Assembly (NCBI GenBank): GCA_041393775.1
Contig: JAWKJM010000005.1
Span: 2,529-66,528, forward strand
Length of the DNA: 64,000 nucleotides
Origin: Candidatus Nanopelagicales bacterium
Lineage (GTDB): Bacteria > Actinomycetota > Actinomycetes > S36-B12 > UBA10799
Direction: 5' to 3'
This document shows positions 4,342 to 46,245 of the stretch, in pieces. Both the position numbers and the translations under genes were made by a program. The notes under the pieces were generated by a model. The model ran no database searches, had not been told where the DNA came from, and saw only the letters and a list, made by a program, of their open reading frames with translations. Position 1 is the first letter of the stretch; every line of letters starts with the position of its first letter.

Positions 4342-4544
4342 TCTGGTCCGAAAACGGCTCGTGTACTCGGTCGCCGGCGCTGGTCGCGAGGTTAGAGAAT
4401 GGTCGCGAGGTTAGAGATCGTGCACGAGGTTAGTGAACGCACGTGTGGCTTCTCTAACCTCGTGCACGATCTCTAACGCGAGCGGTATCCGCCCGGCATT
4501 TGCCCGCCTGAACGGGCGGCCGACCACGGCCGCGGATGACTAAC
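4342..4544 (+). repeat. Family-1 modular hairpin repeat, locus R1 (modules A, B, C)
   Basis: Reads GTCCGAAAACGGCTCGTGTACTCGG..CGCGAGGTTAGAGAA (x2). A hairpin follows: 28-nt arms at 4410-4437 and 4450-4477 with 27/28 complementarity, and a loop CGCACGTGTGGC. Module C follows, ending GATGACTAAC. Confidence 0.9.
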
Positions 4545-15026: not shown

Positions 15027-15318
15027 TCTGGTCTGAGAACGGCTTGCGTACTCGGTAGCCGCGGGAGTCGGCCGCGAGGTTAGAGATCGTGCACGAGGTT
15101 AGTGAACGCACGTGTGGCTTCTCCAACGCCGTGCACGTTCTGTAGTCCGAAAATGACTGGTGTACTCGGTCGCCGCAGAAGTTGGCCGCGAGGTTAGAGG
15201 TCGTGCACGAGGTTAGTGAATGCACGTGTGGCTTCTCTAACCTCGTGCACGTTCTCTAACCCGAGCGGTTTCCGCCCGGCATTTCCCCGCCTCAACGCCA
15301 CGGCCGCGGATGACCAAC
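15027..15318 (+). repeat. Family-1 repeat, locus R3 (two tandem A-B units and one C module)
   Basis: There are two copies of ..GTACTCGGT..GGCCGCGAGGTTAGAG..GTGCACGAGGTTAGTGAA.GCACGTGTGGCTTCTC... The first right arm is mutated (CTCCAACGCCGTGCAC). The locus ends GATGACCAAC. Confidence 0.9.
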
Positions 15319-21162: not shown

Positions 21163-24100
21163 TCACGGGGAGCGAACGTCCGGACCGTCTGTGGCCCCAT
21201 CACCGCCGAAACCCCCGCCACCGGGTGTCTCGATGACCAGGCGGTCACCTGCTTCGACGAGTACCGACTCAGTCGCGGCCATCTCGTGCACGGCCCCGTC
21301 CAGGCGCTCAAGGGTGGTTCGCCCCGGGGCTCCGTCGCCACCGCCATGAAGCCCGAACGGCGCGACCCGTCGGCGCCCCGAGAGCAAGGACACCCGCATC
21401 GGTATCAGGAACTCCAGTTCCCGGACCGCGCCGTCGCCTCCGCGGCGCAAGCCGGAACCGCCGGTGCCCGCCCGGACGCCGAAGTGCCGCACTCGCACCG
21501 GATGGCGCAGTTCCAGCACCTCGGGGTCGGTGAGGCGGGAGTTCGTCATGTGGGTTTGGACCGCAGCCGTGCCGGTGAAGTCCGGACCGGCGCCGGATCC
21601 ACCGCAGATCGTCTCGTAGTACTGGAAGTCCTCAGTGCCGAACGTGAGGTTGTTCATGGTTCCCTGAGATGCAGCGCACGCACCGAGTGCGGCCAGCAGA
21701 GCATCGGTCACCACCTGGCTGATCTCCACGTTGCCGGCAACAACTGCCGCCGGGTACCCGGGGTCCAGCAGAGAGTCGGCCGGCACCCGGAGATCGACAG
21801 GGTCGAGGCAGCCGTCGTTGAGCGGGATGTCGTCGTCCACCAGGCACCGGAACGCGTACAGCACGGCCGCCCGGGTGACCGCTCGCGGGGCATTGAAGTT
21901 GTCGCTTCGGGCGGGGCCGGTTCCGGCGAAGTCGACGACCACCCGGCGGGCAGCACGATCCACGCTCACCCGCACCTCAATGGGGGCGCCGTCGTCGATG
22001 TGGGCGACGTGGTGTCCGTCGTCCAACGAGTCGATGACGCGCCGTACGCACTCGGCCGCGTTGTCCTGGACGTGTCCCATGTATGCGCGGACCACGGCTA
22101 GCCCGAACCGCTCCACGAGTCCCTGCAACTCGGTCACCCCGTTCGCGTTCGCCGCGATCTGCGCAACCAGGTCATTGACGTTGCGGTCCGGCGAGCGGGC
22201 GGGGTAGGCCGCCTCTTCAAGAATCCTGCGAACCAGCGGTTCGTCGAAGACGCCCTCTCGCACGATCCGGATGTTGCGCAGCAGGACCCCCTCCTCGTGG
22301 ATGGTCCGGCTCATCGGCGGCATCGATCCCGGCGTGATCCCGCCAACGTCAGCGTGATGCCCCCGGCTGGCGACGAAGAACAGCGGGTCTGGCTCCTCGC
22401 CGAATACCGGCGTCACCACTGTGATGTCGGGGAGGTGGGTGCCGCCGTTGAAGGGGTCGTTCGTTGCGAACACGTCGCCGGGCTGCCAGGATTGCCGGTG
22501 CTCGGCGATGATTGCATGCACACTCTCGCCCATCGAGCCCAGGTGTACGGGGATGTGGGGGGCGTTGGCGACCAGGCGTCCCGCTGGATCAAAGATCGCG
22601 CACGAGAAGTCGAGCCGCTCCTTGATGTTCACCGACCGCGAGGTCTGCTGCAGGGTCACGCCCATCCGCTCGGCCACGGACATGAACAGGTTGTTGAACA
22701 CTTCGAGCATGACTGGATCCACGCTTGTGCCGATCGACACCGTGCCGGGCCGTGCTTCGACGCGCTGCAGGTTCAGTTCGCCGCCCGGCAGCACCGAGGC
22801 CTGCCAGCCGGGTTCAACGACGGTGGTGGCCACAGATTCGGCGATGATCGCTGGGCCGCGGATTCGCTGACCGACGGGGAGGTCGTCGCGCCGGAAGACT
22901 GGCGCATCGTGGGTCTGCCCGGTCAGGTGCACAGGCACGTGTGCGGTGGGTACCGCCGCCGCCCCCGCCCCGATGGGCAGGTTCAACTGGGCGGATTCGC
23001 TGCGTTCGATGGCCTCCACCGCGATCGCGTCGATGACCACCGCCCTGTCCGGCATCGTGAAGCCGAATCGGCGGTGGTGGGCGGCGGCGAAATCCTGGAG
23101 CAGCGTCGGGCTGTCGGAGTGTGGGATAGGCAGGGCGGTGTCGCTGCCGACATACTTGAGATGGACGTGGCGCTCCACCTCGATGTGGCCGGTCGCTCCC
23201 TGCTGCCGCAGTCCGTTCGTGACATCCCCGGCGGCCTCGGTCAGCAGCCCGGCCAGTTCGGCATCGGTCATGTCCGACAACGGGACCTCGACGCTGCGTT
23301 CGTGCAGCAAGCGGGTGTCGGCCAGTGCCATGCCGACGGCCGACAGCACTCCTGCGAGCGGATGGATGACCACTGAGCTGATGCCCAGTTCGTCCGCCAC
23401 AGCGCAGGCGTGCTGGCCGCCGGCCCCGCCGAAGCAGGCGAGGGCGTAGGCGCTGACGTCGTGCCCGCGGGCAATGGAGACCTTCTTGATCGCGTTGGCC
23501 ATGTTGGCCACCGCGATGTTCCGGAACCCCTCGGCGAGCATGGCCGGCGAGCGGGTGTCCCCGGTTGACTCGGAGAGGCCGCGCCTAACCGCCTCCAGTC
23601 GATGCAGCGCAGCTGTCACGTCCAGCGGCGCGTCACGACCCGGACCGAAGGTGGTGGGAAAGAACTCGGGCCGGACCAGGCCCAGGACCGCGTTGCAGTC
23701 CGTGACCGTGAGGGGCCCGCCCTTGCCGTAACTCGCCGGCCCGGGTTCTGCCCCTGCGGAGGCCGGGCCCACCCGGAGTCGGCTGCCGTCGAACGAGCAG
23801 ATAGACCCGCCGCCGGCTGCGACCGTGTGGATGTCCAGCATGGGCGCCCGCAGTCGCACCCCCGCCACCTCTGACTCGAGTGAGCGCTCCAACTCCCCGC
23901 CGAAGTGGGCCACGTCGGTCGAGGTTCCACCCATGTCGAAAGTAACGACCCGGTCGAAACCCGCAGCCCGGCTGGTGCGCACCGACCCGATGAGGCCCCC
24001 GGCAGGTCCCGACAAGATCGCGTCCTTGCCGCGGAAGGCAGTCGCCTGCGCGAGTCCGCCGTTGGACTGCATGAACCGCAGGTCGACGCCCGGCAGTTCC

Positions 24101-24816
24101 TGTGCCACCCGCCTGGTGTACCGCAGGAGGATCGGTGACAGGTACGCGTCGACCACCGTGGTGTCGCCACGTGCGACGAACTTGATGAGTGCGCTGCAGT
24201 CATGGCTGGTGGACACCTGCCCGAAGCCCGCCTCCCGCGCCAGTTCGGCGACGAAGTCCTCGTGCTCGTTGAACCGGTAGCCATGCATGAGTACCACTGC
24301 GGCGCTCGTACAGCCGCTCACCCGCGCCGTTCGCAGGTCCGCCAACAGTGGCTCCGGGCGGGGCCGGAGCAGCACCGTACCGTCGACGGCGACTCGTTCG
24401 TCGACCTCCACGACATGGTCGTAGAGCGGTTCGGGCCGGTGGATGGCCAGATCGAACAGGCGCGGCCGGTTCTGGTACCCGATCCGCAGGGCGTCTGCAA
24501 AACCTCGCGTGATGACCAGCGCGGTCGCGTCGCCATGTCGTTCGAGCAGGGCGTTCGTGGCCACGGTGGTGCCCATGGTCACCGACGCGATCGTACCCAC
24601 GGGGATGGATCCGTCAGCCACCCCGAGCAACCTGCGGATCCCTTCGATCGCGGCGTCATCGTAGGCGTCAGGGGCCTCGGAGAGCAACTTGCACACGTGC
24701 GTGTCGCCGTCGGGATCTGCAGCCACGACGTCGGTGAACGTCCCGCCGCGGTCGATCCAGAATCGCCACCCGGTCACGGGCCCATTCTGCCGCAGCCGCA
24801 CCGGGACGCAGGGCAC
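21163..24816 (-). CDS. 5-oxoprolinase / hydantoinase A-B fusion (ATP-hydrolysing)
   Basis: 1217-aa ORF. The N-terminal HyuA-like part includes WIDRGGTFTDVV. The C-terminal HyuB-like part includes DPFNGGTHLPDITV. Confidence 0.9.
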   Translation of the reverse strand: MPCVPVRLRQNGPVTGWRFWIDRGGTFTDVVAADPDGDTHVCKLLSEAPDAYDDAAIEGIRRLLGVADGSIPVGTIASVTMGTTVATNALLERHGDATALVITRGFADALRIGYQNRPRLFDLAIHRPEPLYDHVVEVDERVAVDGTVLLRPRPEPLLADLRTARVSGCTSAAVVLMHGYRFNEHEDFVAELAREAGFGQVSTSHDCSALIKFVARGDTTVVDAYLSPILLRYTRRVAQELPGVDLRFMQSNGGLAQATAFRGKDAILSGPAGGLIGSVRTSRAAGFDRVVTFDMGGTSTDVAHFGGELERSLESEVAGVRLRAPMLDIHTVAAGGGSICSFDGSRLRVGPASAGAEPGPASYGKGGPLTVTDCNAVLGLVRPEFFPTTFGPGRDAPLDVTAALHRLEAVRRGLSESTGDTRSPAMLAEGFRNIAVANMANAIKKVSIARGHDVSAYALACFGGAGGQHACAVADELGISSVVIHPLAGVLSAVGMALADTRLLHERSVEVPLSDMTDAELAGLLTEAAGDVTNGLRQQGATGHIEVERHVHLKYVGSDTALPIPHSDSPTLLQDFAAAHHRRFGFTMPDRAVVIDAIAVEAIERSESAQLNLPIGAGAAAVPTAHVPVHLTGQTHDAPVFRRDDLPVGQRIRGPAIIAESVATTVVEPGWQASVLPGGELNLQRVEARPGTVSIGTSVDPVMLEVFNNLFMSVAERMGVTLQQTSRSVNIKERLDFSCAIFDPAGRLVANAPHIPVHLGSMGESVHAIIAEHRQSWQPGDVFATNDPFNGGTHLPDITVVTPVFGEEPDPLFFVASRGHHADVGGITPGSMPPMSRTIHEEGVLLRNIRIVREGVFDEPLVRRILEEAAYPARSPDRNVNDLVAQIAANANGVTELQGLVERFGLAVVRAYMGHVQDNAAECVRRVIDSLDDGHHVAHIDDGAPIEVRVSVDRAARRVVVDFAGTGPARSDNFNAPRAVTRAAVLYAFRCLVDDDIPLNDGCLDPVDLRVPADSLLDPGYPAAVVAGNVEISQVVTDALLAALGACAASQGTMNNLTFGTEDFQYYETICGGSGAGPDFTGTAAVQTHMTNSRLTDPEVLELRHPVRVRHFGVRAGTGGSGLRRGGDGAVRELEFLIPMRVSLLSGRRRVAPFGLHGGGDGAPGRTTLERLDGAVHEMAATESVLVEAGDRLVIETPGGGGFGGDGATDGPDVRSP

Positions 24817-25049
24817 GACAGGCTCCGGCGCTCGCCGCGTGGTCGCCCTTCAGCGTCCTCGGTGTCGTGCTGGACTTGATCAGTCAACGCCGGTGCAGCC
24901 GCGTTCGGGCTGGAGGTATGTCATTGCGCTGGTCGAGCGTACCGTTGTGCCGGCCGGCGCTGAACGTCCCTGAAATGCACGAGTCGCATCGAAGGTCGCA
25001 CCGCCAGCACAAGTGCACCGTCAGGCGAGGTTGCCCCAACGTGATTTGG

Positions 25050-25129
25050 CGGTGAGGTTAGAGGACGTTCACGAGGTTAGAGAAACCACGCGTGGAATCT
25101 CTAACCTCGTGAACGTCCTCTAACCTCGC
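25050..25129. repeat. Family-1 repeat, locus R5: hairpin-only variant, near-perfect 78-bp palindrome
   Basis: Reads GTGAGGTTAGAGGACGTTCACGAGGTTAGAGA-AACCACGCGTGGAA-TCTCTAACCTCGTGAACGTCCTCTAACCTCGC. The arms match 31/32. The centre is ACGCGT instead of CACGTG. Confidence 0.9.
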
Positions 25130-25192
25130 TTCGGGAAGCGCAGGGGTCGGCTGGCGGAGTGTGGGTGTGACTGGTCACCAAAGACCGCCTCC

Positions 25193-25489
25193 TTAGGTCT
25201 TGTCTATCGCCCGTGCGGGCTCGAGGATCAATGTGCGGGGACTACCTACCAGGGCAGGCGCGTCGGCCGGTGTTGCCCAGACCTTGTCCCGCAGGAAGGC
25301 CAGGAACGCTTCGGCCTGTTCTCGGCGCTCGAAGTCCAGATCGACCACGAGGTAATGCGGATCATCCACCGGCTGGGCGATCCGCACAGAGGTCACGCCC
25401 CCGGACCGGCGAGCCTGCTCGAAGCGGTCGAACGCTGCGCGCCACGTCGCGAAGTCGGTGATAGCGTGCTCGATGTGCAATGTGGTCAT
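25193..25489 (-). CDS. Small hypothetical protein (98 aa)
   Basis: Internal ATG at 25489 gives [28 protein letters not shown]... The composition is protein-like. The longer ORF-track extension is R/S-rich. Confidence 0.6.
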
Positions 25490-25791
25490 GCGCTCAAAGT
25501 AGCCCTGCCACGACGGAAGCCGCCATACCCGGTTCTTGGGTTCTTTCGGGCGTAGCCTGCGCCGTGTTGACGCACTGGACTCAGTCGAGCGGGTGGTGGA
25601 ACGCCCGCCAGAGCACGTCGACCGCGTTGGCGAACATCGACTGAGGCGGTTCTGGGCCGTGGGCTCGGACAAGAGCATGGGATCGGCCGATCTCGGGGGT
25701 GCCGTGCCCGACGATCACGTGTCCGAGCGCTCGGTCTCTCGCAGCACAATCAGCCGCCTGGGCCACTGGCACGCGGTAGGTCGCGCGAGTC

Positions 25792-27489: not shown

Positions 27490-27703
27490 GCCTCGCCGTT
27501 CTGGTTGAACAGTCCCGTCCGCGTTTGCCTCAATCCGCCGGTGATCTTGTTGTGTAGGTCGGTGCAGGGGGAAACGGCCGCCGAAGAACGGGCGTCCCGG
27601 ACACTTTCAAAGCCGCAAGCAGAGGCATCCTGGTGACGCCCGGTGTGGGTTGCGTTCAGCGTCCGATAGGCCCCATCGAACGAGGCGATCTCGATTCGAA
27701 CCA

Positions 27704-28081
27704 ACCCGAAAACGGCTCGTGTACTGGCCACGGGAGTTGGCCGCGAGGTTAGAGAACGCGCACCAGGTTAGTGAATGCACATGTGGCTTCTCTAACCTCG
27801 TGCACGTTCTCTAGTCCGAAAATGGCTGGTGTACTCGGTAGCGGCAGGAGTGGGCCTCGAGGTTAGAGAATGGTCGCGAGGTTAGAGATCGTGCACGAGG
27901 TTAGAGAATGCACGTGTGGCTTCTCTAACTTGGTGCACGTTCTCTAACGCGAGCGGTTTCCGCCCGGCATTTCCCCGTCTGAACGGGCGGCCGGCCACGG
28001 CCATGGACGACTAACGCGAGCGGTTTCCGCTCGGCATCCTCCCGTCTGAACCGGCGGCAGGCCCGGCTATGGATGACCAAC
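27704..28081 (+). repeat. Family-1 repeat, locus R6 (largest copy: two A-B units and two C modules)
   Basis: Two hairpins were read (..CACCAGGTTAGTGAATGCACATGTGGCTTCTCTAACCTCGTGCAC.. and ..GTGCACGAGGTTAGAGAATGCACGTGTGGCTTCTCTAACTTGGTGCAC..). Two C modules follow, ending GATGACCAAC. Confidence 0.9.
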
Positions 28082-44247: not shown

Positions 44248-44450
44248 TCCGAAGCGGCTCGTGTACTCGGTCGCCGCACAAGTGGGCCGCGAGGTTAGGG
44301 AATGGTCGCGAGGTTAGAGATCGTGCACGAGGTTAGTGAACGCACGTGTGGCTTCTCTAACCTCGTGAACGTTCTCTGGTCCGAAAATGGCTGGTGTACT
44401 CGGTAGCGGCAGGAGTTGGCCGCGAGGTTAGAGAATGTGCACGAGGTTAG
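44248..44450 (+). repeat. Family-1 repeat, locus R9 (an A-B unit, then a second A-B unit cut in its left hairpin arm by the IS)
   Basis: Contains a full hairpin GTGCACGAGGTTAGTGAACGCACGTGTGGCTTCTCTAACCTCGTGAAC. The second unit ends abruptly at GTGCACGAGGTTAG (44450). Confidence 0.9.
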
Positions 44451-46096
44451 CCCAGATCTTTCATCTGCTGGCTGACGCGGCTGGTGTGGGGGGTGTTGGG
44501 ACTGGCGTTGTTCTGTGTCGTGACCGGGGCGTGGCTTGCTCCCAGCGCTGCGGTTCGCTGGTGCTTCCGGTGTGTGGTCGGGGTGTGGTGTGGGGTGGTC
44601 TGTCGGCGGTTCAGAGCGCGGCGAGTCGGTGGTGGGCTTGGCGTATCAGGTCGGCCCAGGGCCACTTGTCGCTGATCCGAAGGGTGTGTCTTCGACCGCT
44701 GCGGATGATCCGCCCGGCGACCGCCAGGATCCTGAACCGCAGGGTTTTCGGTGACCAGACCCTAGCGTGTTCGTGGTCGCGCCAGGCGAGTTGCTGGGTC
44801 CAGGTGAGCAGCTGGCAGGCCAGCAGACACAGTTCCAGCCATAGCGCGTTCTTGGCCATGGAGTGCAAGGGCAGGTTGTCCGCGCCGGTGGCTTTGAGGT
44901 CACGGATCCGGTCCTCGGCACGCGCGCGCTGCCGGTGGCGGTATTCCAGGTCGGCTGGGCGTCCGGGGCTGTTCGTGACGAACAGTGTGACCCGCCAGCC
45001 GTCGTCCTCCCCGATCCGCAGCTGTGCGCCCGGATGGGCCTTCTCCCGGCGGGCGATCACCCGCATCCCGGCCGGCCACGCCACACGGAACCGGGCCGGC
45101 AACCAGGTAGTCAGCTCGGCGACGTAGGCGTTCGGGCGCGGCGCGCCGTGGGCGTCGACGGCTTTGCGCCAGGCCTGCCGCGGGGTCGCCGCCAGCGCTT
45201 CTTGCAGCCCGGCGTGCACCGTGATCCCGGTGGAGTACTGCAGCCCCAGAGCAACAACGTGGGCCAGGAACTGCTTGGTCCCGCCGGCGCCATCGGCGCG
45301 CACCAGCACCTGGCTACGGCAGTGTGCTGGCAGTTGGGCCAGTGCCGCGTCGAGCACCGCGATGTGATCACCCTGCGTGGCCGACCCGGCGTTGCCGGGG
45401 CGCAGCAACCCGACCAGCGGCTCCCCGGTGCCACCCCCGCCGTGATCCACCAGCCCCAGCAGCGGGTGGAACCCGAACCCGCGTTTGTAGGTAGCCGCTG
45501 CGCCTTCCTTGTCCGAATGCGACCCGATCAGGGTGGCGTCGAGGTCGACCACCACCTGCCCGGCGCCGTCCAACGGGTCCACCCGCTCCCAGACCCCGAC
45601 CCGCGCCGAGGCCGCTGCCGCCCGGACCGCGCTCAGCGCCGCCGCCGTGGCCTGCTCGGTGGCGGTCAACGCGTCGAACAGCCGCGACACCGTCGGGTCC
45701 GAGGCCACCGCCCCGAACAGCTGCGGCTGGGCGCGCAGCACCCCCAGATCAGCCAGGCAATCCCCACCGACCGCGATCGTGATCGCCAGGTCCAGCAGCA
45801 CCTTGCCCGGGTCATGACGGGCCCTGTCAGAGCAGAACCCGGCCAGGCCCTCGGACAACGCCGCGGCCAGCCCGCTGACCTGCGCGGTCTGCACCAGCAG
45901 CCGCGCCCCGGCAGACGACACCAGCGCGTCCTGGCCGGCTTCAACACGAATCGTCGGATACGAGATACCGTTCACCTACGGAGTGCCTTTCCTTCGACAC
46001 GGATTTATGGCTTCAGCACCACAAATTCTCTCGAAAGAACAGGCACTTCCGTCTATTCACACGCCGCTCACACCAGCACCACATGCAAGATCTGGG
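44451..46096 (-). mobile_element. IS1380-family insertion sequence (1646 bp)
   Basis: The terminal inverted repeat CCCAGATCTT occurs at 44451-44460, and as its complement at 46087-46096. A 4-bp direct duplication TTAG lies at 44447-44450 and 46097-46100. Joining the flanks restores the family-1 hairpin. Confidence 0.88.
44611..45975 (-). CDS. IS1380-family DDE transposase
   Basis: 454 aa. The N-terminal region ...HDPGKVLLDLAITIAVGGDCLADLGVLRAQPQLFGAVASDPTVSRL is characteristic of IS1380 transposases as I recall them. Confidence 0.85.
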   Translation of the reverse strand: MNGISYPTIRVEAGQDALVSSAGARLLVQTAQVSGLAAALSEGLAGFCSDRARHDPGKVLLDLAITIAVGGDCLADLGVLRAQPQLFGAVASDPTVSRLFDALTATEQATAAALSAVRAAAASARVGVWERVDPLDGAGQVVVDLDATLIGSHSDKEGAAATYKRGFGFHPLLGLVDHGGGGTGEPLVGLLRPGNAGSATQGDHIAVLDAALAQLPAHCRSQVLVRADGAGGTKQFLAHVVALGLQYSTGITVHAGLQEALAATPRQAWRKAVDAHGAPRPNAYVAELTTWLPARFRVAWPAGMRVIARREKAHPGAQLRIGEDDGWRVTLFVTNSPGRPADLEYRHRQRARAEDRIRDLKATGADNLPLHSMAKNALWLELCLLACQLLTWTQQLAWRDHEHARVWSPKTLRFRILAVAGRIIRSGRRHTLRISDKWPWADLIRQAHHRLAAL

Positions 46097-46245
46097 TTAG
46101 TGAATGCACGTGTGCCTTCTCTAACCTCGTGCACGTTCTCTAACGCGAGCGGTTTCCGCCCGGCATTTCCCGCCCGAATGGGCGGCCGACCACCGTCATG
46201 GACCTCTAACGCGAGCGATCTCCGCCCGGCTTTCTCCCGCCTGGC
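46097..46245 (+). repeat. Family-1 repeat, locus R10 (remainder of the interrupted hairpin, plus two C modules)
   Basis: Reads TTAGTGAATGCACGTGTGCCTTCTCTAACCTCGTGCACGTTCTCTAAC, then GCGAGCGGTTTCCGCCCGGCATTTCCCGCCCGAATGGGCGGCC.. and a second, more degenerate C module. Confidence 0.9.

Follow-up and report, generated by a model that had tools for sequence, protein, structure and literature searches.

R5, a 78-nt palindromic repeat in the genome of an uncultured actinobacterium, is an ordinary member of the symmetric, hairpin-only class of its repeat family, and only one of its mirrored changes, at pair 27, is its own. We tentatively attribute this mirrored pair to quasipalindrome template switching, a rare templated copying of one arm from the other, in an element that resembles REPs and REPINs. 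In the copies examined, the tendency of the two arms to be identical is real but weak; it occurs in short contiguous tracts and appears all-or-none. Positions given without a contig name refer to the window, which is the whole stretch of 64,000 nt that was analysed. The source genome, G000, has 3.2 Mb in 17 contigs. R5 and its parts are listed below.

25052..25129, no strand: R5, hairpin-only palindromic repeat copy, 78 nt (from reading of the palindrome, folding, and flanks with no A or C module)
25054..25090, plus strand: R5 left arm, 37 nt (from arm pairing)
25091..25127, plus strand: R5 right arm, 37 nt, complementary to the left arm at 35 of 37 positions (from arm pairing; outer 22 nt also in a Logan contig)
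25064..25072, plus strand: R5 left spacer GACGTTCAC; G 25064 is the private change (pair 27) and T 25069 the shared variant (pair 22)
25109..25117, plus strand: R5 right spacer GTGAACGTC, fully complementary to the left spacer; C 25117 pairs with G 25064 (pair 27) and A 25112 with T 25069 (pair 22)
25084..25097, no strand: R5 centre ACGCGT (25088-25093) and the two flanking A.A mismatches

The two arms of R5 abut with a gap of 0 nt, and two outer pairs, T.G at 25053/25128 and G:C at 25052/25129, complete the 78-nt palindrome. Pairs 8-39 match at 31 of 32, and the only two internal mismatches, both A.A (25085/25096 and 25084/25097), lie beside the centre. Each arm consists of two 19-nt units, and each unit is made of GAGGTTAGAG and a 9-nt spacer. 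The sequence GAGGACGTTCACGAGG occupies 25061-25076 and is matched without error by its complement at 25105-25120. The 9-nt spacer GACGTTCAC was found on both arms of R5 and nowhere else in the 3.2-Mb genome. Neither module A nor module C is present in the flanks, and no consistent target-site duplication, as expected of a MITE, was noticed when flanks of the copies were inspected by eye. An earlier reading made from the letters alone (the sequence-only reading) had already described the palindrome, its position, the 31/32 arm match and the lack of A and C, and all of these held when the letters were re-read. The folding that it had proposed gave -40.6 kcal/mol for the single-stranded DNA (z = -11.7) and -66.4 kcal/mol for the RNA of the minus strand (z = -12.7), both far beyond chance.

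The core motif GAGGTTAGAG occurs 625 times in the source genome, and the inner-hairpin pattern has 232 copies, 229 of which are in a common register. The arms of the whole family are built of 19-nt units, each a motif and a 9-nt spacer. Modules A and/or C accompany 203 of the 229 copies, while 26 have neither; this hairpin-only class, which includes R5, was defined by our own patterns for A and C, and a few of the 26 bear a variant C that the pattern missed. The left arms of A-B-C copies mostly carry ATCGTGCAC, while their right arms and the hairpin-only copies mostly carry AACGTGCAC. A full copy in the window is as follows.

4388..4480, plus strand: R1, full A-B-C copy, with ATCGTGCAC on both arms and CACGTG as its centre

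Pneumococcal BOX elements (boxA-boxB-boxC) and enterobacterial BIMEs are modular intergenic repeats. The present family resembles them in its A-B-C mosaic with optional and repeated modules, including composite A-B-A-B-C arrays in the window (15040-15300, 27700-27990, and 44250-44450), but the sequences are unrelated and have no Rfam match, and R5 is module B only. In these arrays, the end of the first hairpin's right arm is fused directly to the second module A (the CTCTAGTCCGAAAA junction). One hairpin copy has been split into two halves, R9 and R10 (44427-46144), by an insertion sequence about 1.65 kb long. This element is bounded by terminal inverted repeats (about 44451-44470 and 46077-46099), shows an apparent TTA duplication, and encodes, on the minus strand, a transposase of 454 aa that matches DDE_Tnp_1_4 (E = 1.6e-70). 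Two 16-mers at C4:412411 and C8:4807 were rejected as repeat copies; they are chance matches outside any copy, in what looked by eye to be ordinary, probably coding, DNA.

Related species of the same genus have the hairpin-only form with the ACGCGT centre, in 39 copies in G004, 199 in G010, and 182 in G007, and there are a few hairpin-only copies each in G005, G006, and G009. At the few loci read in these species, neither module A nor module C was present. In the source genome, the ACGCGT centre is present in 20 of the 26 hairpin-only copies, and a C opposite G at pair 1 was found in only 12 of the 203 A/C-module copies. Judging from these comparisons, R5 is most likely the form shared across the genus and not a stripped-down copy, in which case its centre would be ancestral and not a private change. 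The sequence-only reading had held that the centre of R5 had changed from CACGTG; the letters ACGCGT were confirmed, but they are typical of the hairpin-only class and of the related species.

The repeat family is known only from one genus of uncultured Actinomycetota. When 185,579 species genomes were scanned with a pattern for the GGTTAGAG-type arm, no match was found outside the source genome, and a relaxed arm pattern in the same scan matched only three MFD MAGs of uncultured Actinomycetota. One letter of the motif is species-specific and differs in each of the four motifs of an element, whether direct or inverted: the form is GGTTAGAG in G000, GGTTGGAG in G004, and, for the inner motif, GGTTAGCG in G010 and G007. 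This species-level shift in the letters suggests that a protein recognises the motif, or that the copies have turned over from an altered master; it does not speak for base pairing.

Two other features of the arms are shared by the species. About 97% of the 229 copies, and the majority of those in the related species, have mismatches at the pairs beside the centre (pairs 5-6), even in otherwise perfect palindromes of G000, G004, and G010 (for example, at 25084-25097 in the window), and these pairs are a conserved internal loop or asymmetry. The trinucleotide at pairs 25-27 (25064-25066 and 25115-25117 in R5) is dimorphic, AAC or GTT, which are reverse complements of each other. In G004 (L029-L067), the two arms read AAC/AAC in 8 copies, GTT/GTT in 6, AAC/GTT in 9, and GTT/AAC in 6, almost independently of each other, as if the 3-bp segment flips; the source genome has the same dimorphism.

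The sequence-only reading had counted three mirrored substitutions in R5. This count is correct only if R5 is set against the consensus of left arms in A-B-C copies. For right arms, the consensus reads GAGAACGTGCACGAGG already, and compared with it R5 has two departures on both arms, one of them private. The T to A "substitution" is the consensus of the right arms and of the hairpin-only copies. The change at pair 22 from G:C to T:A (AACGTTCAC) is already mirrored in C3:651435 and C4:318110 and is present as T:A in 8 of the 39 G004 copies. It is also found on one arm in C3:1237515, whose left arm differs from that of R5 by one letter. The sole change that is private to R5 as a mirrored pair is A:T to G:C at pair 27 (25064/25117). 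Even here, G is common among family members (on 33 left and 21 right arms), and the same change is present on one arm only in C7:203949 and G004 L051. The effect in R5 therefore amounts to one private pair, and its size had been overstated.

R5 is intergenic, and both neighbouring genes are on the minus strand.

25193..25678, minus strand: 161-aa ORF without a family match, upstream neighbour; its stop codon is 63 nt from R5
21163..24816, minus strand: hydantoinase/oxoprolinase gene, downstream neighbour; the likely true start is GTG at 24777

R5 is about 240 nt upstream of the hydantoinase/oxoprolinase gene. The Logan short-read contig SRR28338160 (L171, 1747 nt) encodes a protein identical to the 161-aa protein, and it is identical to R5 over the outer 22 nt of the right arm, both variant letters included, before it stops within the palindrome. 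Exact look-ups of the hydantoinase protein from either start (24816 and 24777) returned 0 matches, and the independent confirmation covers the right arm of R5 only. Short-read assemblies seem to break at these palindromes, as this contig does 22 nt into the right arm, and palindromic repeats are probably under-represented in them. Homologues of the 161-aa ORF were found in three members of the genus (about 50-58% identity) and homologues of the hydantoinase in two (83% identity at the N-terminus). In those members, the two homologues are not adjacent and no palindrome is nearby. Since there is no orthologous R5 site among the genus members, R5 could not be polarised. When metagenomes were scanned with the 161-aa protein, none of the relatives found exceeded 60% identity.

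To ask how often arms match each other, we used about 320 copies from three genomes, with expectations obtained by shuffling the right arms among copies; relatedness between copies remains in these tests, and the G004 and G010 sets were ascertained via conserved motif letters. In the family as a whole, the mutual information at mirrored positions was low, and the consensus itself has mismatches, including T.T at pairs 10 and 26, as well as those at pairs 5-6. There was no excess of mirrored non-reference cells in the 203 A/C-module copies (49 versus 50.3 expected, p = 0.65). Perfectly matching arms were found in 18 of these copies versus 8.6 after shuffling; this excess may come from subfamily descent, and thus the shuffle test is not free of relatedness effects.

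The 26 hairpin-only copies of the source genome behaved differently from expectation. Mirrored non-reference cells numbered 24 versus 11.8 expected (p = 0.0007), 9 copies had identical arms over pairs 7-34 versus 2.1 expected, and 15 had identical spacers versus 4.6 expected. None of the 20,000 shuffles (0/20,000) reached the value for identical arms or that for identical spacers, and both excesses were unchanged without R5. The 39 copies of G004, an independent genome from a sister species, also had more identical spacers (13 versus 4.8, p = 0.00015) and perfect arms (7 versus 2.0, p = 0.002) than expected, but the total of mismatched cells was not reduced (142 versus 149). Therefore, the effect is all-or-none and not site by site. 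No concordance was found in 52 of the 199 copies of G010, in which there were 83 mismatched cells versus 79.7 expected and 22 copies with identical arms versus 23.5. At the level of single sites, rare variants were mirrored barely more often than by chance (1/55 in G000, 1/18 in G004, and 0/29 in the 52 G010 copies).

When the 65 hairpin-only copies of G000 and G004 were taken together, 85.6% of the cells were paired, and 139 cells were changed on both sides versus 103.9 +/- 8 after shuffling. The covariation score was 0.140, versus 0.109 in shuffles and 0.04-0.07 in slid controls, and much of this score is due to the species-level letter change in two motif pairs. Pair 22 is unpaired in 26 of the 65 copies.

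Spacers that are unique within a genome mostly occur on a single arm. There were 32 such spacers in G000 versus 3 that are on both arms of one element (R5, GTTGTTCAC, and AACGGGCTC), and 14 in G004 versus 1 on both arms (AACGTCAAC), so that about 90% of the unique spacer variants in these genomes are on one arm only. Two of the mirrored unique spacers, AACGGGCTC and AACGTCAAC, have multi-base changes. The copy with AACGGGCTC on both arms, C9:96924 of the source genome, is an A/C-module copy with two private mirrored changes and with arms that are mismatched elsewhere, and, as a single copy, it illustrates mirroring confined to a tract more clearly than R5 does. Concordance was linked between adjacent modules, with an odds ratio for pairs 19-24 with pairs 25-27 of 13 in G004 (p = 0.002) and 9.4 in G000 (p = 0.03), versus about 1.1-1.7 for non-adjacent modules in G004. 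The mirrored states are mostly transversions without a wobble intermediate (G:C, T:A, and C:G at pair 22; A:T and T:A at pair 26).

From the mirrored changes in R5, the sequence-only reading had concluded that the paired structure is maintained, by selection on the hairpin or by templated conversion, unless the arms change independently across the genome and R5 is a lone accident. The alignment of the family gave a divided answer. The arms are largely independent in the 203 A/C copies and in the 52 copies of G010, but R5 is not alone, as there is an excess in the hairpin-only copies of two genomes and there are three other unique mirrored spacers. Of the two processes, conversion fits better than selection on the structure, given the all-or-none tracts, the transversions, and the lack of a general drop in mismatches.

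With arm-to-arm templated copying, R5 would have arisen in a few steps. Its arms would descend from an existing haplotype with AACGTTCAC on both arms, and one arm would then have changed from A to G at pair 27. The other arm would have been re-copied from the changed arm over a short tract; we infer both this event and its direction. The copying might take place by intramolecular template switching of a folded-back nascent DNA strand, or by an equivalent repair within an extruded hairpin. It would be a mutational process that acts occasionally on any imperfect inverted repeat, and it would require no function of the paired structure. The changes are limited to tracts, all-or-none, and rich in transversions, the centre is untouched, and about nine in ten private variants are unmirrored; this pattern fits occasional re-copying of an arm at the DNA level. 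Moreover, mismatches that survive on the centre side of otherwise perfect copies are expected if copying begins only after the loop has been replicated.

Quasipalindrome-associated template-switch mutation is reportedly described by the Ripley model. The repeats studied here have the features of such a system, in that an imperfect inverted repeat is able to fold back within one strand, a whole tract of one arm comes to match the other at once, the mirrored changes include multi-base changes and transversions, and the centre is untouched. The difference is that here there is only a statistical footprint in a repeat family, and the rate appears to be low. Template switching at quasipalindromes has been established in E. 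coli assays (PMC7202029), and it has been shown both to generate perfect stems and to preserve them (PMC8794818). A counterpoint is that the process would be rare, with single-arm to both-arm unique spacers at 32 to 3 and 14 to 1. In addition, since G at pair 27 is common, the R5 haplotype could have been pieced together from existing alleles, with no new mutation, and the excess of identical arms could also result from better spread of symmetric masters.

The palindromes also flank a gene.

G000 C3:219511-220631 (L006:1012-2132): palindrome-bracketed gene locus of the source genome
G004 C2:1943317-1944470 (L018): palindrome-bracketed gene locus of G004

The gene in the source genome (C3:219670-220530) encodes 287 aa and is beside topA, between two hairpin-only palindromes. 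Its orthologue in G004 (77% protein identity) is located exactly between two G004-type palindromes, and the orthologues in G010 and G007, each with about 190 dispersed palindromes in the genome, are flanked by their own genome's palindrome type. Other inverted repeats, based on GTTAG/GTTGG and read at the gene itself, flank the more distant homologues in G008 and G001. The source genome also has three more distant paralogues. Searches of Pfam and NCBIfam with the single 287-aa sequence gave nothing informative, and there was no match to PDB sequences; family matches came only from a scan of the orthologues. Five of eight matched PF18741 (REase_MTES_1575, a restriction-endonuclease fold; best E = 9.9e-5) and one of eight matched DUF559, while the G000 protein alone had E = 0.18 against PF18741. 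Neither the 287-aa protein nor its orthologues matched Y1_Tnp, and thus the gene is not of the RAYT kind (HUH Y1 transposase, IS200/IS605 type).

Since the hairpin-only form brackets a single-copy restriction-endonuclease-like gene, the family looks REP/REPIN-like. REP/REPIN elements and their RAYT gene were reportedly described by Nunvar in 2010. The present repeats are likewise short extragenic palindromes in tens to hundreds of copies (229-232 hairpins, 26 of them hairpin-only), with two inverted halves that form a long hairpin, and the single-copy gene is bracketed by the genome's own repeat type, so that the species-specific repeat sequence tracks the gene. They differ in that the bracketed gene is a 287-aa candidate with an endonuclease fold and not a HUH/IS200-like tyrosine transposase, the arms are made of 19-nt iteron-like units bearing GGTTAGAG, most G000 copies have the extra modules A and C, and the mobility of the family is putative. 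A further likeness is the mirrored changes, as compensatory changes have been reported to be common in the hairpins of REPINs (Bertels and Rainey 2011, PMC3116915).

It is possible, though on the unlikely side, that copies are selected for a foldable single-stranded DNA hairpin, as has been proposed for REPINs, with the family's enzyme recognising and spreading only those whose arms pair well, and that the mirrored changes are true compensatory pairs. The excess of concordant arms in two genomes would be consistent with this, as would several mirrored haplotypes that are shared by two or more copies and by the two species, and the compensatory changes known from REPIN hairpins. The arms also diverge between species and yet stay mirrored, and the flanked gene bears each genome's palindrome type. 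However, the most prolific lineages of the source genome are asymmetric (ATC/AAC in 48 copies and ATT/AAC in 25, with T.T at pair 26), and concordance did not go beyond chance in the 52 copies sampled from G010, which has 199. Concordance is limited to tracts and is not arm-wide, the mirrored changes are mostly transversions, and the R5 haplotype is a singleton and therefore has not spread.

We consider it unlikely that R5 results from descent and coincidence, in which the arms are unlinked, AACGTTCAC/AACGTTCAC was inherited, and each arm separately gained the common G at pair 27 by point mutation or patchy exchange. Such an origin is made easier by the facts that there is one private pair only, that G at pair 27 is frequent in the family, and that the same change is single-armed in C7:203949 and G004 L051; the mirroring of rare variants, barely above chance in all three genomes, also agrees with it. 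Nevertheless, two complementary hits on one pair with none at the other approximately 60 arm positions would be expected about 1 time in 200 by our own estimate, and coincidence leaves unexplained both the class-wide excess of identical spacers and the multi-base mirrored singletons.

REP elements are known to stabilise upstream mRNA. A transcript hairpin might have been selected in place at R5, for instance to stabilise an mRNA 3' end or to separate the 161-aa ORF from the hydantoinase gene as a barrier, with its pairing kept by compensatory mutation. R5 is located between two same-strand genes and has a very stable RNA fold on that strand (-66.4 kcal/mol). This explanation is nonetheless improbable, because the same class of sequence is present at many unrelated sites with freely mismatched arms, and a perfect 31-bp stem far exceeds the need of such a role. 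A search of Rfam with R5 matched 0 families. Covariation in excess of relatedness, which would be expected of a structured non-coding RNA, was not seen in the 65 copies of G000 and G004, and G010 gave no covariation at all. A promoter scan found no promoter-like site at R5, and there was no terminator-like site on either strand within 24700-25300; no T run follows the stem, as it follows the GC-rich stem of an intrinsic terminator. Lastly, an assembly or consensus artefact that made the arms alike is conceivable for a MAG with MFD long-read MAGs as relatives, since graph assemblers may be misled by palindromes and the Logan contig stops within R5. It is nonetheless very improbable, because that independent short-read contig has the same right arm, including its two variant letters, hundreds of copies retain single-letter differences between arms, and other copies with the same local context have A at the position equivalent to 25064.

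Quasipalindrome copying as a type of event is already known, while the sources that we searched contain no description of the repeat family or of its partner gene with an endonuclease fold. Mirrored changes in hairpin arms are routinely taken as proof of a selected RNA structure, and here the same signature is present in a selfish-looking DNA repeat. The counts across the family, in which mirroring is rare, tract-like, and absent from the largest populations examined, call for caution in covariation-based RNA discovery in repeat-rich genomes. The three genomes with their roughly 320 copies provide a natural data set for arm-to-arm copying. They also present a REP-like system of uncultured Actinomycetota whose associated gene encodes an endonuclease-fold protein and not a RAYT. 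A more specific proposal, which we regard as distinctly unlikely, is that the mirrored arms are the footprint of this restriction-endonuclease-like protein, which would cut or process the hairpin or cruciform at the ACGCGT centre, after which repair would re-template one arm. If this were true, arm symmetry would be regenerated by an undescribed, non-RAYT mechanism of mobilisation or maintenance in this actinobacterial repeat system.
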